Positions 22,804-35,573 of a DNA stretch of 64,000 nt are shown piece by piece. This DNA comes from Candidatus Latescibacterota bacterium (GTDB lineage: Bacteria > Latescibacterota > UBA2968 > UBA8231), in NCBI GenBank assembly GCA_965221775.1, contig CBDCSU010000006.1, forward strand, positions 1,184,001 to 1,248,000, in the 5' to 3' direction. Position 1 is the stretch's first letter, and the number at the start of each line of letters is the position of its first letter. A model generated the notes under the pieces. That model had not been told where the DNA came from and made no database searches. It saw only the letters and a program-made list of their open reading frames with translations. The translations under genes were made by a program, and so were the position numbers.

Positions 22804-22822
22804 TCAAGCCGCCTCAGGCGAT

Positions 22823-23092
22823 ATGCAAGAGGTCTCGGCCAGAGAAGCCAGGAAACGATTCGGGCAATTGCTCGATGCCGCCCAGGGCGGACCTGTATGC
22901 ATCACCAGGAGAGGCCGCGCGGCCGCCGTCATGATGTCCATGGAGCAGTACCAACGGCTGCAAGGCGCCGCATGGGCGCGCTTGACGGAGACGATGGACC
23001 GCTTGGGAGCCGAGGCGGTCGGCCGTGGATTGACCGGGGCTGGGCTCGATGCGCTCTTGGATCCGCAAGGTGAGACGACCCTTGAGAGCTGA
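22823..23092 (+). CDS. Phd/YefM family antitoxin
   Basis: VSAREARKRFGQLLDAAQGGPVCITRRGRAAAVMMSMEQY. Confidence 0.85.
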   Translation: MQEVSAREARKRFGQLLDAAQGGPVCITRRGRAAAVMMSMEQYQRLQGAAWARLTETMDRLGAEAVGRGLTGAGLDALLDPQGETTLES

Positions 23093-23353
23093 TCGGCGTG
23101 CTGGTGGCCGAGGTCGCCCACAACACGCCCTACGAGCGCCCAGTGGAGGACACCCTGTGGACCGCTCGCTGCCTGGCGCAGGTCACCGCGTGTCCGAGGA
23201 TCGCATCCAATCTGGCGGACCATCGGGCTGCTGCCGTATCGACCGATGCCTTTTCACTAGACAAGGTGCGCAACATCGTGGGCCTGCATCTCCACTCCCC
23301 AGCATGATGCCGCCTGTGTCTGCAATAGCGCTTCAGAGCGCGGCGGTCCCCAC

Positions 23354-26300
23354 ATGATCATCCCGCTCGAACCCAACCTCCAAGGCTTGGCAGCACGACG
23401 TTTCCATAGCTTTGCTCGGCAAGTTCTCAACCGGCAGGGGGCCGGCGAACACCATCGAATCGCCGCGCTCGTGGACGCGGAGACGGTGCATGCGCCCGAA
23501 CGCCGCGAGCTCAAGGGTCAATGCGACGAATACACCGCCTGCGTGCGGGTGCTTGGAGACCTCGCGCAACTGCGCTGGAAGCTGGTGGAGAGCGGGCACG
23601 GCCTGGAGCTCCACTCGCCACGCCTAGTGGACGCTCGGACCTCCGGGCCCTGCGAGTCTCACCGGCGAAAGGAAGCGATCCGCAACGAGCTGCGTCCGCG
23701 CCTCCTGCAACAGTTCGCGGACCCGCACGTCCGGCAGTTCATCCGGCGGATGGAGCGCCCAAGAGCCACGTCGAGACATACGTCCATCAACGCCCTGATC
23801 GCGGACGGCGCCGAATTGCAGCAGCGTCTGCGCGAGGCCCGGGACCATCCGCTCGACGATCCTGCACGCAGCAAGGCGCTGCGCGGCGCCATCCGACCCT
23901 ATCTCCAACTCGTCGAGCCGGGGGTGCGCGACGAGCACACCGCGATACCGCTGCGGGACATCTGGCGCTACTTCCGTTTCACTTGGTCAATCCCGCAAAC
24001 CCCGATACCCGGTCGCAGCTTACTCTATCTGGTCAGGGACGCGGCCCACGAGTACCATGGCGTGATCGGCATCGCCGCACTCAGCAACTGCGCCGTGCAA
24101 ATGGTCCCGCGCGACCGCGCCATCGGCTGGAGTGCCAAGGGACTTGCTGACGCCCTGACGACGCTCTTCTCCTCCGCTGAGCAGAGGGGGGAGCGCGAGG
24201 CTAGCGACCCCTCCCTCGGCATGCAAGGCCCCTATCGGTGGCTGTTGCCGCTGTTCCCGGTCGGCGTCGACCCTTCGCAAGAGACCAAACGGACGGCACT
24301 GGAACGTCTCTTCGCTTGGCTTCTTCAGGGGATATCCACGGCGATCGGGGAGATCGAACATCAAGGGCTCGCGACGCCGGAAGACCTCAAGGCACCGACC
24401 CAGGAGATGATCGACCGCCTTCGCCATCTTAGCAGGGAATTCGCGGCAAAGCGCCAGGAGGCGCTGGCCCGAAGCCGGGAAGACGGCGACATCGTCGGCC
24501 TAGCCCCGGGCGCCGCGACCGCGCCCGTCGACGATGATGTCCTCAATCTCGAGGCCAAGCATGCGTCCAATGCGCCGGTCAACAATTCGCGGCGCATGCT
24601 GGTGCGCAAGAAGCGGGCCTTCGAGCTGGCGCGCCTGCTCGATGCCGCTAGAGTCCTGGCCGCTAGCCGCCAAACCCTGACCGACCCCACCACCGCCTTC
24701 GCCACCTTGGAGCGGGAAGAAGTACGCACCGCCATCAACACGGCCATGAGCGCGACAAAAAGCCGGCGCATCGGGACCAACCTTCTGGAAATCACCACAT
24801 GTGGCGCGGTGGCCCCCTACAACCGCATGCTGGGCGGCAAGCTGGTTGCGCTGCTCCTGCTCAGCCCACAGGTGGCGGCGGACAACAACCGCCGCTACGG
24901 GAACGAACCTGCGATCATCCGCTCGCAACTCAAGAATACCCGGGTCGTCCCCGACAATACCCTTGTCTGGCTCGGCACGACCAGCCTTTTTTCACACGGC
25001 AGCAGCCAGTACGAGCGTCTGCGCCTTCCGTCCGGCACCATCGCCCCTGACCAGGAGGAGATCCGCTACCGCTATCTCGGCGAAACGACCGGCTACGGCA
25101 CGGTGCAGTTCGCGGACGACACCGTGCGCGCACTCGATACCGTGATGCGCCGCCGACGCGGCTTCCGGGACGTCAACAGCGTGTTCGGCGAGGGCGCGAG
25201 TCCCAGGCTGCGTAAGCTGAGGTCGGGATTGGACGCGATCGGCTTCAACGCCAGCCTCACCATGCTCCACCACCAAGGCAGGCGCATCTACGGCGTGCCC
25301 CTGTTCCCGACCGCCGCCGCCTATCTGTGTGGCCTCGACCCGGACGTTCCGGACTACATCCGTGCGCCCGAATCCTACGAGGACGCCAGCGAACGCATCG
25401 CCGAGTTCTGGCGCCGACGCTGGCTTGCCCGAAGACTCGAACACGAAGACAGCTGGACGGCTCTTGGCGAGACCGGACAAAGGCTTCTGAGCGCCACCAT
25501 TCCAGAACCGCCCGAGCCGACGGCGTCCCGGGTGGCCGGAGACGGAGAGGACATCGACGACGGCGACGGCGGGAACGACGGTCCGCCAGCGGATGACTTG
25601 GCCGAACTCAACTTCTGGCGCACGCTCGCACGCGGCGGGCCTAATGCCATCTCAGAGGGTTTGTCCGACGACGAGTATGCGCGGTTACACCTTACGACGC
25701 CGCTCGAAGATCATCTTCTCAAGCAGGCACGACAAGGCCGCTCGATCGTACTCACCGGCAATGCCGGCGACGGAAAGACCCATCTCGCCCGCACCCTGCG
25801 GCGCCGCCTCGGAAGCAATTCCGAGCGTTTCGTATTCGAATTCGATGCCACCGCCACTATGACCAGCCGGGATGGCGTCGCACCGATCATAGAAAGCTGG
25901 CGATGGGCGAGCAACAACGGCAAGAGCATGGTGCTCGCGATCAACCAGTACCCGCTGCACATGCTACGCCAAGAACTGCGGAGCGCCCTGCCGGCCGTCT
26001 CCGACGCCATCGACCAGCAGTGGCGGGCGCGATTGTATACGGAGCCTTCGGACGATTCGTCGGACCCAAGCGACCTCCTGCTCGTGGACCTGTCTCTCCG
26101 CAATCCTCTCTCGCAACACTTTGCGAATCGTGTACTGAACAAGATGCTGGAGAGCCCGGCCGTCAGGCGATATGCCGCGAGCCATTCCGATCCGAACTTC
26201 TCGCTCAATTTCCGGTGCCTATCGCATCCCGAGGTGCAGACGCGCCTGTTCCATCTGTTCGCCAGGGTTGTCTCGTCCGGTGGACGCGCGACCATCCGCG

Positions 26301-27265
26301 AACTCTGGATCCTGTGCGCTCGATTGCTCTTCGGTGCCTCTTTGGATCCCGGCTTGCCCGGCTCTCACCAAGCTTGGTATTCCGACCGTCTGTTCCAACG
26401 CGACGCGCGCTTTCCCCTGACTGGTGCGCTGTGCCGCGTTTCCGACCCCGCACAGGTGAGCCACCCCCAGATCGACCGGCGACTGGAGGATCCGGAAGGA
26501 ACCCGGGGCGTCGACTGGCTCATCGACGGCGAGCCCCCGGACCTCCCAGCCTCTCCCGTCGCCACTATGGCCACCGCCGCCCACAACCGCGACCGATACC
26601 AGGCACGGTTCGCGGCCCGAAAACGCCGCTTCTACTTCGAACACACCGACGGCGGTGAAGACCGCGTCTTCGCGCTCGATGACAGCTCGCATGCCAGTTT
26701 CCACCGAATGCTGGGGACGGACACGCATGACGACGAGTACCGGCGCGTCCTGATCGAGGCGATCAATCGCTGCTACTTCCCGCATGAATTCGACGGCATG
26801 CGCGACAAGCTGTGCCTGTGGATCGGCCACCGCCTGGACGAGCAGCCGACCAAGAGCTTCGTTGCCAACGAGTGCCTTCCGCTGGGACGTCTCGCCCTCA
26901 GGCGTCCGGTGCCGCCGGCCTCGCTGCGCGACACCCTGGAATACGTTCCCGACCACCTCCTCTTGTGTCTCGCGAGCCCGGACGGCAGCGTTTCCCGGGA
27001 TCTCTCGCTCCGCATCGACCCGGCACTCTTCGACACCCTCTGGTCCATCCGGGGGGGGCTACCCCGACACCTGATCGATCCCGCCGAACTCAACCGACTC
27101 GACACATTCATCGACCGCCTGCGTCGCTCGTCACCGCCGCCGGAACCCCTGCCGGAGTTCCTGATCTACAACGCCGAGCATGTCGCCTCGAGCGTCGTCA
27201 AGCTCTCCGCCGATCGCACGCGATACGACCGTGTCGACCGGCTCCCTCCGGAAGGACGGACATGA
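23354..27265 (+). CDS. Druantia DruA (DUF4338)-like domain fused to a DptF/DndF-like P-loop NTPase
   Basis: N-half: WRYFRFTWS..PGR, CGAVAPYNRMLGGKLVA, TTSLF..SSQYERL, NSVFGEGASPRLRKLR, WRRRWL. Acidic/Pro linker. C-half: IVLTGNAGDGKTH, DATA, LAINQYPL, DLSLRN, KRRFYF. Confidence 0.72.
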   Translation: MIIPLEPNLQGLAARRFHSFARQVLNRQGAGEHHRIAALVDAETVHAPERRELKGQCDEYTACVRVLGDLAQLRWKLVESGHGLELHSPRLVDARTSGPCESHRRKEAIRNELRPRLLQQFADPHVRQFIRRMERPRATSRHTSINALIADGAELQQRLREARDHPLDDPARSKALRGAIRPYLQLVEPGVRDEHTAIPLRDIWRYFRFTWSIPQTPIPGRSLLYLVRDAAHEYHGVIGIAALSNCAVQMVPRDRAIGWSAKGLADALTTLFSSAEQRGEREASDPSLGMQGPYRWLLPLFPVGVDPSQETKRTALERLFAWLLQGISTAIGEIEHQGLATPEDLKAPTQEMIDRLRHLSREFAAKRQEALARSREDGDIVGLAPGAATAPVDDDVLNLEAKHASNAPVNNSRRMLVRKKRAFELARLLDAARVLAASRQTLTDPTTAFATLEREEVRTAINTAMSATKSRRIGTNLLEITTCGAVAPYNRMLGGKLVALLLLSPQVAADNNRRYGNEPAIIRSQLKNTRVVPDNTLVWLGTTSLFSHGSSQYERLRLPSGTIAPDQEEIRYRYLGETTGYGTVQFADDTVRALDTVMRRRRGFRDVNSVFGEGASPRLRKLRSGLDAIGFNASLTMLHHQGRRIYGVPLFPTAAAYLCGLDPDVPDYIRAPESYEDASERIAEFWRRRWLARRLEHEDSWTALGETGQRLLSATIPEPPEPTASRVAGDGEDIDDGDGGNDGPPADDLAELNFWRTLARGGPNAISEGLSDDEYARLHLTTPLEDHLLKQARQGRSIVLTGNAGDGKTHLARTLRRRLGSNSERFVFEFDATATMTSRDGVAPIIESWRWASNNGKSMVLAINQYPLHMLRQELRSALPAVSDAIDQQWRARLYTEPSDDSSDPSDLLLVDLSLRNPLSQHFANRVLNKMLESPAVRRYAASHSDPNFSLNFRCLSHPEVQTRLFHLFARVVSSGGRATIRELWILCARLLFGASLDPGLPGSHQAWYSDRLFQRDARFPLTGALCRVSDPAQVSHPQIDRRLEDPEGTRGVDWLIDGEPPDLPASPVATMATAAHNRDRYQARFAARKRRFYFEHTDGGEDRVFALDDSSHASFHRMLGTDTHDDEYRRVLIEAINRCYFPHEFDGMRDKLCLWIGHRLDEQPTKSFVANECLPLGRLALRRPVPPASLRDTLEYVPDHLLLCLASPDGSVSRDLSLRIDPALFDTLWSIRGGLPRHLIDPAELNRLDTFIDRLRRSSPPPEPLPEFLIYNAEHVASSVVKLSADRTRYDRVDRLPPEGRT

Positions 27266-28593
27266 CCAAACGGCAGGCGCACTTCCAAGCTTTCGGCTAC
27301 GAACCGCTGCGCATGAAGCCCGTGCATTTCGCCTCCGGCTTTTTCATCGCCCTGAAAGGGCAGGTCTACGCCAACGAGCTCCTGAACAAGGTCGCGGTGA
27401 CCCAAGCGAACAAGGGATTGCAGCACGGCTATACCGCAGAAGATCTCCTCGCCAAGCTGAAAGCCGACCAGCTGGTCTCGTCGACGATGACGCAGGCAGA
27501 TGTCGAACTGCTTCGCGTTCAGGTCAATGGCGTCGTCAATAATGATGCCGCAATGTATCCCGCGTTTCACCCCTACCGACCGAAGGGAAACGACTACACG
27601 TTTATCTCGCCTCGCGTGCTGACCACTGCCAACCGGACCGACGGCTTCGCCGGGCTCTTCGTCTTTGCCGTCCTCGACGAGACCGCTTCCGGAAAGGCCA
27701 TCCTTGATGCCGGGCGCGAGCTTGCAGCGGAACCCCAAGGCGCGCTGGAGCAGCTCGTCGCACCGCTACTCGAGGACGAGGATCCGGAGACGCGGGAGCT
27801 TCTGGAGAGCTACGAGCGCGATTTCGGCGTGCTCGATCCGGCGCGCATCGCGTCAATCGCCGCCGACATGCAGGCGGAAACCGACGCTCTGCAACGCCTG
27901 TGCGCCAACATGATGGGCTACAGCCACTACAAGAAAATCCGATACTACGTTCTCGGGCTCCTGGCTTGGCTGATGAGTTACATGCTCAAGACGGCCTCCC
28001 CCGAACAGTCGAAGACACCTCTGATGTTCTTTGACTTCATGGGCGAGAGGGACGGGCGTATCCGCACGCAGAGCCAAACGTGCTACGCACGTCTGCGGGA
28101 AACCGTGCGCCGGTCCTACAGCGAATTCGCTGCCTCCGGCCGGTTCGATCCCGACCCAATCGCCAAGGGGCTATTCAGCCCGAAAGAGCGGCCGGACGAA
28201 ACCAATTTCAAGTTCTTGGAAGAACACTTCAGCAATCTCGCCTTGCGCATGGGCTATATCCAGCCCCGTGCCTCGCGGGTGCGCCTAAAGCACTTCGAGC
28301 TTCAGCCCGACACGCTGCGGGTCCTGATGCTGAGCATTCTCGACGTCGATGCGGGGAACGCGATCACGCTCGACGACGTGTGCAAACGCCTTGGCCACAC
28401 CTGGAGCGTCGTCGTGGGGGCGCTTGGAGTCGATCTCGAGTCCCTGCGGGAGCAGGACTATTTCGGGTTCGACGAAGAAGACCTCCGCCACAACACGGCC
28501 GCATTCTCGCAGCATCTCAAGAGTCTCAGCATGGCATTCGAACCCTCCGATGGTCTGGTGCTTTGCTCCACGGATATCGGGGAAGTTCTTTGA
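27262..28593 (+). CDS. DptG/DndG-like hypothetical protein (443 aa)
   Basis: ATGA overlap with the upstream gene; size and position between DptF-like and DptH-like genes; C-terminal GYIQPR..K.F and LKSLSMAFEPSDG resemble DptG C-termini. Confidence 0.5.
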   Translation: MTKRQAHFQAFGYEPLRMKPVHFASGFFIALKGQVYANELLNKVAVTQANKGLQHGYTAEDLLAKLKADQLVSSTMTQADVELLRVQVNGVVNNDAAMYPAFHPYRPKGNDYTFISPRVLTTANRTDGFAGLFVFAVLDETASGKAILDAGRELAAEPQGALEQLVAPLLEDEDPETRELLESYERDFGVLDPARIASIAADMQAETDALQRLCANMMGYSHYKKIRYYVLGLLAWLMSYMLKTASPEQSKTPLMFFDFMGERDGRIRTQSQTCYARLRETVRRSYSEFAASGRFDPDPIAKGLFSPKERPDETNFKFLEEHFSNLALRMGYIQPRASRVRLKHFELQPDTLRVLMLSILDVDAGNAITLDDVCKRLGHTWSVVVGALGVDLESLREQDYFGFDEEDLRHNTAAFSQHLKSLSMAFEPSDGLVLCSTDIGEVL

Positions 28594-31500
28594 ACCGCGA
28601 CGGCTATATCGCGCAGGCCGCCGCGCTGGAAGTCGACCGGGTCATCCGGGAAGCCGGACATTTCTTCTGCCCCGAGCTTCCGGCCATGGACGTCCAGCGC
28701 TTCCTCTCCGCCCTAGCGGAACTCACTGACGACGTGGCCGGGGTGTCCCTCGCACTCGTCGGTTACGAGGTGTCGGAGACCGACCTGCGCGATCGGCTGA
28801 ACGCCATGGCACTGCCGGTCAGGCACGTGACGACTGATCTTCATGTAGCAGCGAAGTGGCGCAACGAGCCGGACAAGCATACGAACATCATCGCGCTCGC
28901 GACTGGCCGCTACCCCGGCGTCAGCACACTCGCGCACTTCCCGCAGGGCAACGCCCGCACCCTGGCGACGCGACTGCTCACATGGGCCCGGACCGAGCAG
29001 GCAGGACTCGCGTCCACCCCCGCGCAACGACGGCTCCTCGAAGCGCTCGCCGAGACTCGCGCCCTGTCCCCGCTGGTGTCCCTGAACGGCGTCGCCGGGT
29101 TTCTCGCGACTTGGAGCGCGAGCCAAGCGGAGGACGCGCTCGATGCGCCCCGCGGTGCGTTACCCCGTCTCGGCATTCTACCAGACCGGAAACTGTTCGG
29201 AGCCGTCGACGAGATCCCTCAGCGCCTGTCGCAGAATTACCGTTTGACCCAGAACTTGGCCAAGATGCCCGGACAGACGCTCGAGGCGATTCGCCGCCGG
29301 ATCCGCAGAAGCCGGTCCCCACATCGCGCCAGACGCCTGGAGATTCTCGAAAGGGTGGAGGCAATCCGCCACACGGGCGGCTTCGATACCTTCAGCGCGC
29401 TGGACTACGAGGACGCACGGGGAATCCTCTCACCTCCGAAGGACGATCGGGCACCCGGCCCACCCGCTGACCCCGACCAGGAGCAGAGAGACAACGGCTT
29501 GCCACGCGACACGCTCGACGAGAGGGATGTCTCGAGAGAGGGTGGCGAAGCGCTTCTCGACGGGGATGACAAGACGCTACAGGACATCACTGAGCGCGTC
29601 GGCCAGGCTCTCCACGATGCGATGGAGGAGGACGAAGACGAGGCCAGCGGCGAGTACGCCGTCAATGGTGACGAACGCCGGTTCGAACTCCAGATCGACC
29701 GCGAACTTCTGACCTGGGTTCGCTTCTTCTGTGGGGCCGATGCTTGGGGTGGGTGCTTCGAAACGCGAGACCCGTCCCTCGAGACCGCACTGCGCCACTA
29801 CGGCCAATGCGAGCCGATCCAGATCCGGCCGACAGAAGCAACGATTGCCCACATCGACGAGATGCACGATCTGCGCTCGGCCATCAAGCTCATGCAGGAC
29901 GCGTTGCACCGCGCCGGGATCACCTCGGAAGACTTCTGCGGGCTCTGGGACCGCATCGTGGCTGCGCGCCGGGTGTTGCTGGAGGATCTCGAATTCCTGC
30001 TCTTCCAGCCAACATTGGCGATCGCCGGCAAGCCGAAGCTCCGGGCGGCAGCGGCCGAACTCGTCCAAGCTTGGGAGCGCCTCTACGACAGGTTGGCCCA
30101 CCATCACAAGGACATGGAGCGAATTGACCGGGCCTGGACTCACATGCTCCTGGAAGCCGTCGCCTCGCTCGACGTCGTCCAGATCAAGACCAGGCTGGAT
30201 GCCCGACGATCGTCCTGGAAAGCGATCCTGCTGCCGACCCATCCCCTGCATCTGTGGCGCTACGAGAGAATGGCCACGCTTGCCCGCGGACTGGGACTCG
30301 AGGGACTAGACCGCATAGCAGTGCTTGAGCAGCTCGAACAGCCCGAGCACTATCTCGGCGTGCTCTGGCTCACGAGCTTCCCCGAGGGCAGAGGCGGAAG
30401 CCAGCCACTGCCCGTCGCGCGTGACTATCGCGGGCTGGGGGTCTTCGAGAACCTGCGAAATGCCTATAGCGGAAGTGACGGGGTCGAGGCGCTGCAACGC
30501 TGCGTTCGCCAGTTCGCACAAATCTACGTAAACCATACACAACCGCTGCGGCTTGCCTTGGTCAATCCGCCGAACGCAAGCGAGATGCTGTTGACCCTGC
30601 TCAAGGACAGTCGCGGGCGCCTCGCTCCCCCAGTGCCCTTGCTCGTCGACATCTATGCGACGCAGAACCATGAGGCCCGCATCGTCGGCGCGCGACGGTT
30701 CTCCACCGAGGACCGCGACCAGATCGAAGAACACATCGGCAACGGACGACTGCGGCTGCGCGTCCATGACCGCGTGACATCGCTGGAGGAACGGCTTCGC
30801 AGCTTCCAGGAGAAACCCGTCCACATCATCGCCGTGTTCGACGAAGCCACAACCAGCATGCGCCAGCAGCCCGGCGGCATCAATCTGCTACCCATGAGTC
30901 CGTTCGCAACGCGTCGGCGGATCGACTATCAGGCGATCAGCGGACAAGTTGAACTCCTGCCGTCACTGGAGGAGTCGGTGTTCCGGGCCTTTTACGACAT
31001 GCAGGGCAAACTGGATGCTCGGTCCGGTCAGACACCGCAAGCGACCGCCGACGCCCAGCAGATGCGCGAGCATATCGAGTCTGTCCTCACGGGCACCTGC
31101 CCGGGCGCGTTCTGGTTCTTCTTCGCCGATCGGGCGCTGCCCTCGCCCAGCGGTGCGCGGGTGGCGCGCATCCTGGAGCGACGCGACGGGCGGCGTCGCT
31201 CAGTCTGCTACGACGCGAGTTACGAGCGCTTGGCGCTGCTGCTCCGACAGCCACTGGACCAGTTCAATCTCCGCTTCTCCCCGCAACAACTCAAGGAGCT
31301 TATGGAAGAAGGCGTTATTCTGCTGGGCGATGGGCTGATCGATCTCTTCGGGGCCGACGGGCAGCCCGACCCAGCACGGGTCCTTGGCTTTGCCGGCATG
31401 CTGATCGCCGCTCGCGACTACAAGGCACGCCACCCCCAAGCGCTCGTCGTGTCCGTCGATACCCGTCTCGCACGCTTGTGGTTGCGCCTTTCCGATTCCG

Positions 31501-33281
31501 GCGAGCGCTGCGACCTCCTAGGTCTGCGCCATGAGGACGGCACGATGGTCGTCGAGGCAATCGAGGTGAAGACCGTCGGGACCGGCAGTGACGCCGTCGC
31601 ACAGGCGGACATCGAGAAGGCAACCGGTCAACTCGCATCCACGCTCGCCGCCATCCAGTCGGGCTTGGAGGAGAACGAGGAATCCTCGCCGCTTGCCGCC
31701 CCGCGCCAGGAAATGCTCAAGGAACTATTCGTGTCGGGCTGCCAGGCGCTGAAAGCCGGTCGCGAGGACCGCGAGCGTTGGGTGGAGTGGCTGCGGGTGC
31801 TGTTTCGCGAGATCGAGGGCGCCACCGAGACCCAGCTGCGCGGTACGGTCTACGCCGTTGAACTCAGCCACAACGGTCCGCCCGAGGAGGCAATCCTCGA
31901 CGCCACCTCTCATGCCATCGTCCTGCGCCGTGTCAGGGAAGCGCGGATCCAGCAACTGCTCTCCCCGGAAGTGCCTCCCCCGCAGGGCGACGACGACCCG
32001 ACCGATCCCAACCCTCCGACCCAAGACACGGCTCCCCCCAGAGGCTTTGCGGCCCCGCCACCCACCTCGCGTCCCGAGGATACCGCCGAACCGACCGCCG
32101 GCAGTTCTGCATCACCGCCCCCGGGACCCATCCCGATGGAGTCAGGAGTCGCCCCCGACCTAGACCCGGGCGTCCGATTCCCGGTCGGGGAACGTCTCGC
32201 AGGGCACGCGCAAAACCCCCTCTATCTGCACCCGAGCAATACCAAGCTCACGCAGCTCAATATCGGAATCGTCGGCGATCTTGGGACTGGCAAGACGCAA
32301 CTGACAAAAGCCCTGATCTACAACTTTGTCCGCAGCGCCAAGCAGAACCGAGGCCACGCCCCCAAATTCCTTGTCTTCGACTACAAGCGCGACTACACCA
32401 AGCCTGACTTCGTCGAGGCGGTAGGCGCCCGGGTCGTCAACCCCCACCGCATCCCCCTCAACATCTTCGACCTTCACGCGGCAGGAGACCGCACGCCGTC
32501 CGCCCGGCTCGGCCGCGTGAAGTTCCTGAACGACGCCCTGCAGAAGATCTACGGCGGAATCGGCCCGCGGCAGAGAAACCTTCTCAAGTCTGCCGTGATG
32601 CAGGCCTACGACACCGCTCCGGACGGCGTTCCGACCCTAGTCGATGTCCTACGTGCCTATGAGTCCCTCATCGGAGACAAAGTAGACGCGCCCTACAGCA
32701 TCCTCTCCGACCTCGTCGACTTGGAGATTTTCGTCGACCGCGCGGCCGATGCTCAGCACTTCAGCGACTTCTTTACCGGCGTCACCATCGTCGACCTCGC
32801 CTCTCTCGGAATCGGCGACAGGGAGCGAAACATGCTCCTCGTTCTGTTCCTCAACCTCTACTACGAATACATGACCAATCTGGTTAAGCGCCCCTATGTC
32901 GGACGCGATCCGCAACTTCGCTTCATCGATTCGATGCTTCTAGTCGACGAAGCCGACAACATCATGAAGTACAACTTTGATGTTCTGCGCCAGATCCTCC
33001 TTCAAGGACGGGAGTTCGGCATCGGTGTCCTCCTTGCCTCCCAATTCCTCTCCCACTTCCGCACCCGTGACACCGACTACTCCGAGCCGCTCCTGACGTG
33101 GTTCGTCCACAAAGTACCAAACGTCACCCCACGCCAGTTGGAAGCCATCGGCTTAAGCAGAGTCCCAACTTCGACGGTCGAACAGGTCAAGGCGCTGGAT
33201 GTTCACGAGTGTCTGTTCAAGACGCTGGCGGTTCCAGGACGTTTCATGCGGGCATTGCCTTTCTATGAGCTTATGGGGTAG
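28590..33281 (+). CDS. DptH/DndH-like protein: PD-(D/E)xK nuclease + HerA/FtsK-type ATPase (1563 aa)
   Basis: TTGA overlap start; CDLLGL...IEVKT nuclease motif; NIGIVGDLGTGKTQ Walker A, LVFDYKRDY, LLVDEAD Walker B, GREFG..LASQ. Confidence 0.75.
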   Translation: MNRDGYIAQAAALEVDRVIREAGHFFCPELPAMDVQRFLSALAELTDDVAGVSLALVGYEVSETDLRDRLNAMALPVRHVTTDLHVAAKWRNEPDKHTNIIALATGRYPGVSTLAHFPQGNARTLATRLLTWARTEQAGLASTPAQRRLLEALAETRALSPLVSLNGVAGFLATWSASQAEDALDAPRGALPRLGILPDRKLFGAVDEIPQRLSQNYRLTQNLAKMPGQTLEAIRRRIRRSRSPHRARRLEILERVEAIRHTGGFDTFSALDYEDARGILSPPKDDRAPGPPADPDQEQRDNGLPRDTLDERDVSREGGEALLDGDDKTLQDITERVGQALHDAMEEDEDEASGEYAVNGDERRFELQIDRELLTWVRFFCGADAWGGCFETRDPSLETALRHYGQCEPIQIRPTEATIAHIDEMHDLRSAIKLMQDALHRAGITSEDFCGLWDRIVAARRVLLEDLEFLLFQPTLAIAGKPKLRAAAAELVQAWERLYDRLAHHHKDMERIDRAWTHMLLEAVASLDVVQIKTRLDARRSSWKAILLPTHPLHLWRYERMATLARGLGLEGLDRIAVLEQLEQPEHYLGVLWLTSFPEGRGGSQPLPVARDYRGLGVFENLRNAYSGSDGVEALQRCVRQFAQIYVNHTQPLRLALVNPPNASEMLLTLLKDSRGRLAPPVPLLVDIYATQNHEARIVGARRFSTEDRDQIEEHIGNGRLRLRVHDRVTSLEERLRSFQEKPVHIIAVFDEATTSMRQQPGGINLLPMSPFATRRRIDYQAISGQVELLPSLEESVFRAFYDMQGKLDARSGQTPQATADAQQMREHIESVLTGTCPGAFWFFFADRALPSPSGARVARILERRDGRRRSVCYDASYERLALLLRQPLDQFNLRFSPQQLKELMEEGVILLGDGLIDLFGADGQPDPARVLGFAGMLIAARDYKARHPQALVVSVDTRLARLWLRLSDSGERCDLLGLRHEDGTMVVEAIEVKTVGTGSDAVAQADIEKATGQLASTLAAIQSGLEENEESSPLAAPRQEMLKELFVSGCQALKAGREDRERWVEWLRVLFREIEGATETQLRGTVYAVELSHNGPPEEAILDATSHAIVLRRVREARIQQLLSPEVPPPQGDDDPTDPNPPTQDTAPPRGFAAPPPTSRPEDTAEPTAGSSASPPPGPIPMESGVAPDLDPGVRFPVGERLAGHAQNPLYLHPSNTKLTQLNIGIVGDLGTGKTQLTKALIYNFVRSAKQNRGHAPKFLVFDYKRDYTKPDFVEAVGARVVNPHRIPLNIFDLHAAGDRTPSARLGRVKFLNDALQKIYGGIGPRQRNLLKSAVMQAYDTAPDGVPTLVDVLRAYESLIGDKVDAPYSILSDLVDLEIFVDRAADAQHFSDFFTGVTIVDLASLGIGDRERNMLLVLFLNLYYEYMTNLVKRPYVGRDPQLRFIDSMLLVDEADNIMKYNFDVLRQILLQGREFGIGVLLASQFLSHFRTRDTDYSEPLLTWFVHKVPNVTPRQLEAIGLSRVPTSTVEQVKALDVHECLFKTLAVPGRFMRALPFYELMG

Positions 33282-33702: not shown

Positions 33703-35049
33703 ATGGCACAGCAACCAGAGAGCAAGTCTCCCGACAAGAATGAGGACCCGGGCTTCACTGCACTCTCCGTCAGTGGCTTCAAGTCCCTCCGTGAGGAGAG
33801 TCGGATTGAAATCAGGCCCCTCACTGTATTGGCTGGCGCCAACAGTTCCGGCAAATCCTCCATGATGCAACCCCTCCTTCTCCTAAAGCAGACCGTTGAA
33901 GCAAGCTATGACCCCGGATTGCTGTTGTTGAATGGTCCTAATGCCAAGTTCACGTCCGTCAACGAATTCCGACCACGTTGGACGCAAGACTCCAATGGTC
34001 AGCCATTTGCCGTGCAAATAGAGAAGGTAGCGTTTGACTTCTCCATCAAGTGGGTGTTCGACTACGAAGAAGATTCCGGGGTGACCCTTAAGCAAGTGAA
34101 CATCCTCGAAGACGGCAGGAGTCTACGCTTGCGACACTCCCAGGGTCCGAGCCAAATAAAGAGGGCCATTGCAGGCTTTTTCGGGGACATAGATTGGCCC
34201 AAGGGCTTACAGTTGCAGATCACGAGGGACCGCTGCATGCTGCAGGTCGAGCCGAAACAGCCTACTACCAAGGAGGATCTTACGCTACCTCATGCCCGCG
34301 TCCTCTTCTTCACCAGAATCTTCTCTGAGGTTGTAAGAAGGAGATTGGGAGCAGTCATTCATGTCCCGGGACTACGCGGCAATCCTGAGCGAGGTTATCC
34401 TAGAACAGGCTCGGGACCGACATTCCCAGGCGCCTTTCAGAATTACGTCGCAACCATTGTCGCCCACTGGCAAGAGGAGGGGAACAAAGAACAGCTGCGG
34501 GCACTTGAGACGATGCTCTCAGATCTCGGCCTCACCAGGAAGGTCTTAGTGAGAGCAATCGATGACTCAACAATAGAGTTGCGCATTGGTCGTCTTCCGC
34601 ACTCGGACTCTGCCACGGACCTCGTAAGTATCGCGGATGTTGGTCTCGGTGTATCACAGGTCTTGCCTGTACTTGTCGCGCTTCTCGTTGCCGAACATGG
34701 ACAAACGGTGTATATCGAGCAACCTGAGCTGCATTTGCACCCTAGGGCGCAGTACACGCTAGGCAAAATGCTGGCCGAGACGGCCAAGCGAGGAGTGAAG
34801 CTTGTTGTCGAGACGCATAGCGGCTTACTGTTGCTTAGCGTACAGACGCTAGTAGCACAAGGGACTCTTGACTCTGAGTTAGTCAAGCTGCATTGGTTTA
34901 CCCGAGATTCCGAGAACGGCATGACGGACATTCATAGCGCGAATCTGGACGAGGATGGTGCGTTCGCAGATTGGCCGGAGGACTTTGGTGATGTGGAACT
35001 AAGAGCGGAGGGTGAATATTTGGATGCTGTGGAAAGCCGTGGCAAGTAG
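33703..35049 (+). CDS. ABC/AAA_15-AAA_21-type ATPase (DUF3696-like C-terminus)
   Basis: GFKSL, LAGANSSGKSS, ADVGLGVSQVLP, IEQPELHLHP, VETHS, WPEDFGD; visibly lower GC. Confidence 0.85.
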   Translation: MAQQPESKSPDKNEDPGFTALSVSGFKSLREESRIEIRPLTVLAGANSSGKSSMMQPLLLLKQTVEASYDPGLLLLNGPNAKFTSVNEFRPRWTQDSNGQPFAVQIEKVAFDFSIKWVFDYEEDSGVTLKQVNILEDGRSLRLRHSQGPSQIKRAIAGFFGDIDWPKGLQLQITRDRCMLQVEPKQPTTKEDLTLPHARVLFFTRIFSEVVRRRLGAVIHVPGLRGNPERGYPRTGSGPTFPGAFQNYVATIVAHWQEEGNKEQLRALETMLSDLGLTRKVLVRAIDDSTIELRIGRLPHSDSATDLVSIADVGLGVSQVLPVLVALLVAEHGQTVYIEQPELHLHPRAQYTLGKMLAETAKRGVKLVVETHSGLLLLSVQTLVAQGTLDSELVKLHWFTRDSENGMTDIHSANLDEDGAFADWPEDFGDVELRAEGEYLDAVESRGK

Positions 35050-35573
35050 TGGCAAAACAGAGCTGTCGTCGATTGGTGATTGATGCCAATATTGCCCGAT
35101 CTGCGGCGGAAACCGAAGACAATGTCTCAAGTGCGTGCCGGAGATTCCTGGAGGCGGTATTGTGGAGTGGCCATTCTGCCGTGATGTCAGATACCCTTAC
35201 GACAGAGTGGAAGCAGCACTCATCCGGGTATTCGAGAACTTGGCGAGTGAGGATGTATGCACGAAAACGGATTGTGCGAGTCCCGGTAGATCCCGATGAG
35301 ACTTTGCGTAGCCGCTTATGTGCTGCTGTCCAGATCGAGAGTGGAACCACCGTTGATGAAGATGCGCATCTTGTCGAGGCTGCGATTGTAACCGATAGGA
35401 GCATAGCCTCATGCGATGAGAAGGCTCGTAAGGTCTTTGCAGAAGCATCTGGCAGAGTAGGAGAGATAGGGACTATTGTGTGGGTGAATCCGACAACGGA
35501 GGCTGAAGCTCCCGTTTCCTGGCTTCAGGCAGGCGCACCGGCCGAGAGCCATCGTCATCTAGCGAACGGCTGA
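35049..35573 (+). CDS. PIN-like domain hypothetical protein
   Basis: LVIDANI, EW, EDAHLVEAA, IASCD acidic pattern; 1-nt overlap with the ATPase stop. Confidence 0.6.
   Translation: MAKQSCRRLVIDANIARSAAETEDNVSSACRRFLEAVLWSGHSAVMSDTLTTEWKQHSSGYSRTWRVRMYARKRIVRVPVDPDETLRSRLCAAVQIESGTTVDEDAHLVEAAIVTDRSIASCDEKARKVFAEASGRVGEIGTIVWVNPTTEAEAPVSWLQAGAPAESHRHLANG

Follow-up and report, generated by a model that had tools for sequence, protein, structure and literature searches.

We analysed a stretch of 64,000 nucleotides, which we will call the window, from the metagenome-type assembly of a Candidatus Latescibacterota bacterium (GenBank assembly GCA_965221775.1, contig CBDCSU010000006.1, positions 1,184,001 to 1,248,000 of the forward strand). 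One gene in the window joins a DruA domain (DUF4338) to a P-loop protein related to SspF and DndF. It is followed by genes that resemble those for the G and H subunits of the SspFGH and DndFGH systems (Table 1). A preliminary description of this DNA, made from its letters alone, had claimed that the two halves of the first gene share a single reading frame, and this is correct: there is one open reading frame (ORF) of 1,303 amino acids, with no stop codon inside it. The motifs that the preliminary description had named (CGAVAPYNRMLGGKLVA, WRRRWL, the acidic linker, and GNAGDGKT) also lie where it had placed them.

Table 1. Features of the DruA–F cassette. Nucleotide positions are those of the window; aa, amino acids.
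Feature	Position	Strand	Description
DruA–F fusion gene	23354..27265	+	1,303 aa, ATG start; long DruA (predicted GNAT fold), disordered acidic linker, SspF/DndF-family P-loop protein
DruA/DUF4338 half	23354..25498	+	aa 1-715
Layout of the DruA half			N-terminal domain, aa ~1-175; two-part GNAT core, aa ~176-260 and ~476-665, interrupted by ~215 aa of helical insert (aa ~261-475); C-terminal helices last
Beta4-alpha3 motif of the GNAT core, CGAVAPYNRMLGGKLVA	24800..24850	+	aa 483-499
WRRRWL	25409-25426	+	aa 686-691
Acidic linker rich in Pro, Gly and Asp	25499..25606	+	aa ~716-751; predicted disordered from sequence and model confidence
SspF/DndF-family half	25607..27265	+	aa ~752-1303; P-loop domain, which has a large helical lid, followed by an alpha+beta domain
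Walker A, GNAGDGKT	25757..25780	+	aa 802-809; invariant in 30/30 aligned sequences
Asn864, at the end of strand MVLAIN	25943..25945	+	replaces the usual Walker B Asp; invariant in the alignment
G-like gene	27262..28593	+	443 aa; its ATG overlaps the stop codon of the fusion gene (ATGA)
H-like gene	28590..33281	+	1,563 aa if the start is the TTG that overlaps the stop codon of G (TTGA); start codon inferred
Layout of H			large N-terminal region, then a PD-ExK nuclease motif and, at the C-terminus, a HerA/FtsK ATPase
Restriction-endonuclease-type motif of H	31512..31571	+	D975-L ... E992-V-K994; PD-(D/E)xK by motif only
Walker A of the HerA/FtsK ATPase of H, GDLGTGK	32274..32294	+	aa 1229-1235; G1229, G1232, G1234 and K1235 conserved

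The fusion protein matches Pfam's DruA model (PF14236) in two stretches, with 101.6 bits (gathering cut-off 27) and E = 5.7e-29. It also matches PADLOC's model for the long form of DruA, of about 700 amino acids (PDLC00001), with E = 2.1e-125. Between the halves, the predicted local distance difference test score (pLDDT) of the structural models is below 50, at residues 723-745 in the model of the DruA half and in the first 8 residues of the model of the C-terminal half. F proteins that are encoded separately begin just upstream of a conserved LW-TLA-GP motif, and in the fusion protein this motif comes directly after the linker.

Because the assembly is of the metagenome type (completeness 96.8%, contamination 7.75%), we considered whether an assembly or annotation error had joined two genes. 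Apart from the origin of the sequence, we found no support for this. A search of 5.8 billion protein clusters gave 423 matches at E ≤ 0.001, and among the 120 of these that were listed, 110 cover 99–100% of the query and have about 1,273–1,312 amino acids. (One listed homologue, from a Mesorhizobium, carries the NCBI name DruA.) Single contigs from two sequencing runs of one sample span 24800-26400 of the window without any differences, although the window itself may derive from these contigs. In a run from another study, five overlapping contigs likewise show no differences from the window, and one of them (25378-25742) crosses the linker; the contigs of runs X4 and X5 leave small stretches within 24800-26400 uncovered. 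Furthermore, 46 loci with the fusion are spread across many phyla and include isolate genomes (see below). An artefact, which the preliminary description had named as one result that would undo its claim, is thus extremely improbable.

The DruA half is predicted to have a GNAT-type acyltransferase fold. The preliminary description had proposed AlphaFold models and Foldseek searches for each half. AlphaFold gave confident models for both: for the DruA half (745 amino acids, from an alignment of 61 diverse sequences), the pLDDT was 89.8 and the predicted template modelling score (pTM) was 0.90, and for the C-terminal half (AF2) they were 87.4 and 0.86. Foldseek, however, found no match in the PDB at E ≤ 0.001 for either half. 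(The helical transporters that Foldseek returned for the whole 745-residue DruA model were dismissed as noise.) We also compared the DruA model to 48,161 PDB representatives with VIA-align, and the best 50 rows are all GNAT-superfamily folds. These alignments cover mostly residues 175-665 and bypass the helical insert. The top match is Mom from phage Mu (PDB 8bv8), at 9% identity, in a statistical tie with ordinary GNATs; the other 49 of the best 50 rows are GNATs that act on proteins or small molecules or whose substrate is not known. The predicted fold agrees with the published assignment for this domain (PMC10853773, discussed below).

Across the 61 DruA sequences, which are 27–51% identical to the window's, 27 columns are invariant. 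The invariant residues include G484, P488, Y489, G495, and K496 of the beta4-alpha3 motif, Q552/Y553, and many arginines and tryptophans. In the model, CGAVAPYNRMLGGKLVA lies on a strand (477-485) followed by a helix (489-492/494-501). From general knowledge of GNATs, we take this motif to be the usual position for binding the pyrophosphate of the cofactor. Invariance among such divergent sequences makes DruA look like an active enzyme. The predicted fold and the conserved motifs both argue for an enzyme.

By its sequence, the C-terminal half belongs to the SspF/DndF family, that is, to the DndF/DptF superfamily as widened in PMC10853773. In PADLOC's collection, its best-named match is a weak one to SspF (E = 7.6e-9), followed by a weak match to DndF (E = 1.2e-4). 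As references for DptFGH, we took proteins of 536, 438, and 1,675 amino acids from annotated plasmid records. Comparing a profile of the C-terminal half's family with three annotated DptF proteins by hhalign gave a probability of 91.7% (E = 7.9e-7) over 245 columns; the alignment covers the P-loop and lid region, and the C-terminal alpha+beta domain did not align. A hidden Markov model (HMM) of the family matches all three DptF proteins (E = 5e-8 to 3e-5). Four motifs pair with those of DptF: Walker A (GDGK[ST]), a "DAT" motif after strand 2, an asparagine on the Walker B strand (in the context LAIN in the window's family and GIN in DptF), and a later DPA. GNAGDGKT, FDATA (with an invariant D), and LAIN (with an invariant N) are present in 30 of 30 sequences of the family. 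Asparagine in place of aspartate at Walker B is described as a hallmark of DndF (PMC10853773). These results bear out the earlier suggestion of a DptF-like NTPase. Many relatives of the C-terminal half are encoded separately (about 536 amino acids, 36–42% identity). Sequence searches of the PDB, with the whole protein or with the profile of the C-terminal half, found generic P-loops and no structure of DndF or SspF. No protein scored above the cut-off of the DptF model TIGR03238 in 168 genomes of the phylum or in 401 sampled genomes of another class.

The genes downstream complete the three-gene layout of DndFGH and SspFGH: an F part of about 550 amino acids, G, and H are co-directional, with overlapping stop and start codons, and the three genes are predicted from these overlaps to be translationally coupled. 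The C-terminal ~355 amino acids of H match PADLOC's DndH (E = 1.1e-70), and hhalign gives a probability of 99.3% against DptH for this part. The N-terminal ~1,100 amino acids have weak colinear matches to all three DptH proteins (i-E = 1e-4, 5e-3, and 0.06), and SspH matches weakly at residues 74-213 (E = 4e-4). In 43 aligned relatives of H, D975, E992, and K994 of the putative nuclease motif are at least 90% conserved. The link from G to SspG is transitive: an HMM of the window's G family matches a gene on a Haloplanus plasmid (3e-36), and that gene matches PADLOC's SspG (1.9e-12).

The cassette also appears to have been acquired horizontally, because the GC content at third codon positions (GC3) of its genes is 0.77–0.79, versus 0.97–0.98 in the flanking housekeeping genes, and the cassette lies in a low-GC stretch at about 22.6-35.6 kb of the window.

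The preliminary description had also argued that the fusion is Rosetta-stone evidence for a functional link between DruA and DptF-like NTPases, and had suggested searching for split versions in other genomes. We scanned one genome per prokaryote species with a profile of the C-terminal half, kept 79 loci, and classified them with HMMs for both halves. Strong relatives of the C-terminal half are present in 66 of these loci. DruA and F are in one frame in 46 loci (4 of which are broken by frameshifts), and a separate DruA gene adjoins F in another 17 (directly upstream on the same strand in 16, and divergent in 1). In the other 3 loci, the contig begins inside F, so there is no upstream DNA. Long DruA therefore accompanies F in all 63 strong-relative loci with upstream DNA, and the Rosetta-stone inference is sound for this clade of F; the 17 split loci contradict the idea that separately encoded homologs never co-occur. 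The other 13 loci contain distant F-like genes without DruA. We scanned the ORFs from 8 of these, and 5 carry NERD and tandem protein kinase domains, which have been described as N-terminal modules of DndF (PMC10853773).

Most of the related loci also encode the downstream subunits. Of the 66 loci, 49 have an H relative downstream and on the same strand; 15 have no H at all, and 11 of those have less than 2.3 kb of downstream DNA. Relatives of G were found in 32 of the 66 by single-sequence phmmer searches. The split form occurs in isolate genomes of Streptomyces and on an archaeal plasmid from Haloplanus, where all four parts (DruA|F|G|H) were detected and F, G, and H match SspF (1.7e-16), SspG (1.9e-12), and SspH (5.7e-68). 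In a tree built from 58 F domains (fused in 40 cases, split in 16, and unlabelled in 2), the state changes between fused and split at least 2–3 times, and the clades mix nine or more phyla. Starting from DruA instead, 45 of the best 150 representatives (clustered at 50% identity) carry an F region, including all 34 with at least 1,100 amino acids, while 85 of the 150 are DruA-only proteins of 600–800 amino acids.

We also noticed some unusual arrangements. In three loci (L068, L069, and L073, from Myxococcota and a proteobacterial metagenome-assembled genome), DruA and F on one strand face a second F on the opposite strand; in L069 and L073, there is also an H gene on the strand of the second F. 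In two other loci (L018:7805-12310 and L040:9125-12091), F and G matches are in one frame, which could be further fusions or deletions; the frame in L018 arose after the last third of F was lost. Relatives of H share the first ~1,180 amino acids and differ in the C-terminal ATPase (L016-L044 versus L008-L013 and L045-L061). This ATPase is DndH-like in the window and SspH-like in Haloplanus, which fits the published idea that this end has been captured repeatedly.

The architecture itself is not new. Rakesh, Aravind, and Krishnan (NAR 2024, PMC10853773) list GNAT (DUF4338)-DndF fusions of DndFGH, with the DUF4338/GNAT domain N-terminal to the P-loop core of DndF, so the window's gene is a further member. 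As here, those F-G-H operons are often uncoupled from the genes for phosphorothioate modification, and features that they report for DndF (Walker A, the "DAT" motif, and the asparagine at Walker B) are matched in the window. They list the fusion among six occasional N-terminal additions to DndF, whereas we find DruA to be invariable in this clade of F and to occur also as a separate adjacent gene. (The split form may already be recorded in the supplement of that paper.) What we add is the counts for the invariable association, the split form that extends to Archaea, the fold evidence with Mom as the top match, and a caveat about SspABCD (below).

The cassette also resembles SspFGH of Vibrio anguillarum FF-93 (Wang et al., mBio 2021, PMC8092258), which is the same three-gene module, with a Walker A motif in F and an FtsK-like C-terminus in H. 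But as that SspF is described, it does not have a DruA domain, and sspFGH is beside sspBCD and requires phosphorothioate modification for self-protection. In the window's genome, the sole ssp cluster lies on a different contig, and the ATPase of the window's H is of the DndH type, not the SspH type.

DruA is better known from type I Druantia (DruABCDE). That DruA (PF14236; DruA1 in PADLOC) is of the same domain family and has the same long form of about 700 amino acids. In the window, however, DruA's neighbours are the G-like and H-like genes and an NsnB-like gene, and PADLOC scans found no match to DruB, DruC, DruD, or DruE; the DUF1998/MZB helicases of this genome are at least 128 kb from DruA or on another contig. 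Searches of the literature found no experimental work on the activity of DruA, and a preprint on YprA from the Koonin group (10.1101/2025.09.15.676423) does not mention DruA, DUF4338, or DndF.

DruA's association with F is not universal. On plasmids of Roseivivax and Leisingera (L101 and L104; both Roseobacter), two MzaB-like ATPases precede a long DruA, and there is no DruB-D and no F-like gene. On the Leisingera plasmid, a full-length DruE1 helicase and a NERD-helicase lie downstream of DruA, in a Druantia-like layout. On the plasmid from Haloplanus sp. (NZ_CP098517.1, L102, 1040-19806), a full-length DruE1, a weakly DruD-like gene, and a further gene are divergent from DruA|F|G|H, so that a single DruA gene has a Druantia-type arm on one side and an SspFGH-type arm on the other. 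Given that DruA is found with this clade of F and also in Druantia-type loci without F, it looks like a front-end module that is common to two kinds of effector. Within the window's phylum, at least 15 of 168 genomes have a match to Pfam's DruA, mostly to a short form of about 400 amino acids without the helical insert; this count is a floor because the search missed some of the long fused forms.

SspFGH and DndFGH are dangerous to cells whose DNA is not marked. On its own, SspFGH causes DNA damage in cells that lack phosphorothioate, and unrestrained DndFGH behaves similarly in phosphorothioate-deficient mutants (PMC8092258). Nevertheless, DndFGH often occurs without any coupling to the modification genes (PMC10853773), and in the window there is no dndBCDE or sspBCD beside F-G-H. 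Elsewhere in this genome, there is no match to DndC or DndE and none above the cut-off to DndD. Searches with models for DUF4007 and PAPS reductase did locate a complete SspABCD cluster on another contig (C5, ~1,372-1,378 kb, minus strand), with PADLOC E-values of 1.7e-120 for SspA, 2.3e-109 for SspB, 8.5e-153 for SspC, and 1.3e-90 for SspD. So, the phosphorothioate mark may exist in this organism and could act in trans. SspABCD is followed by a 420-amino-acid gene without a match and a 410-amino-acid DndB-like gene, in a segment with a GC content of 0.50–0.54 (~1,368-1,378 kb with the cluster; L108:4739-14356); these two genes could be SspABCD's own restriction partner.

Is SspABCD related to the presence of the cassette? 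Of 168 genomes of the phylum, 46 have SspB, as do 4 of 9 genomes of the same genus. Those nine genomes contain no DptF-type match, and one of them has a DruA match, of the short type. SspB occurs unlinked in 4 of the 6 closest relatives of the cassette (in the genomes of L009, L011, L012, and L013). We scanned 50 of the 63 genomes with DruA and F, and found SspB in 10 and DndC above the cut-off in 7; in 33–34 of the 50, or about two thirds, neither was found above the cut-off. SspABCD is probably independent of the cassette.

We think it is likely, with a probability of roughly 80%, that the product of the ORF is the first subunit of a horizontally acquired cassette of four modules, of the SspFGH/DndFGH kind, that restricts the DNA of invaders. 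The acidic linker, with about 35 residues predicted to be disordered, tethers the GNAT-fold DruA to the nucleotide-binding P-loop protein. F, G, and H would form a complex, as in the SspFGH and DndFGH systems that have been studied; the ATPase of H would move the complex along DNA, and the putative nuclease of H would damage foreign DNA. DruA would be held on this complex as an obligatory enzyme, not as an occasional add-on.

Several observations weigh against this proposal or against parts of it. Scans of Pfam, PADLOC, and NCBIfam gave no direct family match for the G-like gene, and hhalign gives it a probability of 0.4% against DptG. The C-terminal half of the fusion protein scores 16.4 bits (E = 0.0031) with TIGR03238, below the curated equivalog cut-off of 50, so it is not a DptF equivalog. 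The best fold matches of its model are P-loops of the STAND/ORC type, not kinases, while the P-loop of DndF has been called a kinase-type fold (PMC10853773). The substrate, the product, and the DNA binding of DruA are hypothetical, and the same fusion has been interpreted in print as carrying a back-up effector instead of a writer (PMC10853773). SspABCD could supply the self mark in trans. Finally, the completeness and contamination of the assembly make statements about presence or absence across this genome soft, and the counts for carrier genomes are not independent because the carriers are related and many are incomplete.

What would DruA do in such a cassette? We tentatively prefer a putative transfer of an acyl or aminoacyl group that licenses or restrains the nuclease. 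The group could be placed on the cell's DNA, marking it as self, or on one of the components of the complex, and the reaction would provide the self-protection that canonical systems obtain from phosphorothioation. The need for a self-protecting partner is supported by the 40 of 50 carriers without SspB and the 43 of 50 without DndC above the cut-off. A bolder version of this idea, which we consider improbable, is that DruA modifies nucleic acids like Mom, but on the host's side: it would label the host genome with an acyl or aminoacyl group, and DNA labelled in this way would be spared by the F-G-H nuclease-translocase and, in type I Druantia, by the helicase-nuclease DruE. Mom belongs to the GNAT superfamily and attaches glycine, taken from Gly-tRNA, to adenine N6 in double-stranded DNA (Silva et al., Nat Commun 2026, PMC13219725). 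However, Mom is a counter-defence enzyme of phages with 200 amino acids, and DruA is a host protein of 700, with an additional N-terminal domain and the 215-residue insert. A precedent for cooperation between a GNAT and an NTPase is a known housekeeping RNA enzyme that joins the two in one protein and carries out an ATP-dependent modification of nucleic acid. But its domains are in the opposite order, its P-loop is of the helicase type, and the only homology seen here is that of the GNAT fold.

Rakesh et al. explain the same architecture differently: the GNAT would be one of several interchangeable N-terminal co-effectors of DndF, and would acetylate host or phage proteins when restriction is blocked, possibly killing the cell (PMC10853773). 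We view this as rather unlikely, while noting that it was proposed for exactly this architecture, that other modules do occur on the F core (such as NERD with tandem kinases in 5 of the 8 DruA-less ORFs scanned), and that most GNATs act on proteins or small molecules (49 of our 50 best fold rows either do so or have an unassigned substrate). The comparative data argue against it. DruA is never missing in this clade of F (63 of 63 loci) and is retained as a separate gene where it is not fused, so it looks like a core part of the system instead of an occasional addition. There are also Druantia-type loci with DruA at their head and no F gene. Alternatively, DruA might act as a sensor. It would turn on the NTPase of F upon binding a ligand of phage or metabolic origin (acyl-CoA, a charged tRNA, or a nucleotide), with no productive catalysis of its own. 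A flexible tether to a nucleotide-binding regulatory subunit would suit this design, and DndF itself has been proposed to sense the nucleotides of invaders (PMC10853773). But the strict conservation, at 27–51% identity, of residues at the usual cofactor and catalytic positions of GNATs is more typical of an active enzyme, and we consider a sensor to be quite doubtful.

The cassette might also depend on phosphorothioate after all, by reading the single-strand mark of the unlinked SspABCD, with DruA as an accessory; this is compatible with the other roles for DruA. Besides the complete cluster in the same genome, the F and G families are nearer to SspF and SspG than to the Dnd models, and, as mentioned above, most of the cassette's closest relatives also have an unlinked SspB. 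However, SspB is common in the phylum regardless of the cassette, including in the genus, whose nine genomes show no DptF-type match and only one short DruA, and most carriers of DruA–F lack SspB. Also, SspABCD has its own candidate partners next to it (the DndB-like gene and the unassigned gene), and sspBCD and sspFGH are adjacent in the system that has been studied (PMC8092258). Dependence on phosphorothioate in trans is therefore unlikely, in our view.

Other genes lie near the cassette. At the left edge of the low-GC island, there is a gene for an antitoxin of the Phd/YefM family (22823-23092, + strand; TIGR01552, E = 1.8e-12); we recognised no toxin gene next to it, and the 260 bases before the start of DruA have no family match. 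Neither do the ORFs at 22804-23223 (− strand) and 23049-23357 (+ strand), a region that may hold the remnant of a transposase. Downstream of H, at 33703-35573 (+ strand), is a gene for an NsnB-like AAA_15/AAA_21 ATPase with a DUF3696 tail (PADLOC NsnB, E = 1.3e-56), and its stop codon overlaps the start of a 174-amino-acid ORF without a family match. This pair has a GC3 of 0.51–0.60, unlike both the host and the DruA cassette, and may be a second pair of defence genes on the island. We also considered rhizobial plasmids (L096 from Sinorhizobium and L100 from Shinella) as a sister cassette headed by a methylase. Their gene order is a DNA cytosine methylase (Dcm), two unassigned genes, an ATPase of 1,839 amino acids, and Vsr. 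We rejected this candidate: although the HerA/FtsK end of the ATPase is 54–58% identical to that of the window's H, this domain is all that the two have in common.

DruA is the signature protein of type I Druantia, and its link to F-G-H is a clue to its function. Conversely, F-G-H modules without a phosphorothioate writer raise the question of how the host's genome is spared. The permanent link between DruA and F, by adjacency where they are not fused, and in both bacteria and archaea, provides a testable hypothesis for both problems, and a compact cassette of four modules in about 10 kb is well suited to testing it. If DruA does place a mark on the cell's own DNA, then DruA-FGH would be a new class of restriction-modification system, in which an acyltransferase replaces the methylase or the sulphur-inserting writer. 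It could then be understood how FGH modules persist in carriers in which no phosphorothioate writer was detected, which make up roughly two thirds of the total.

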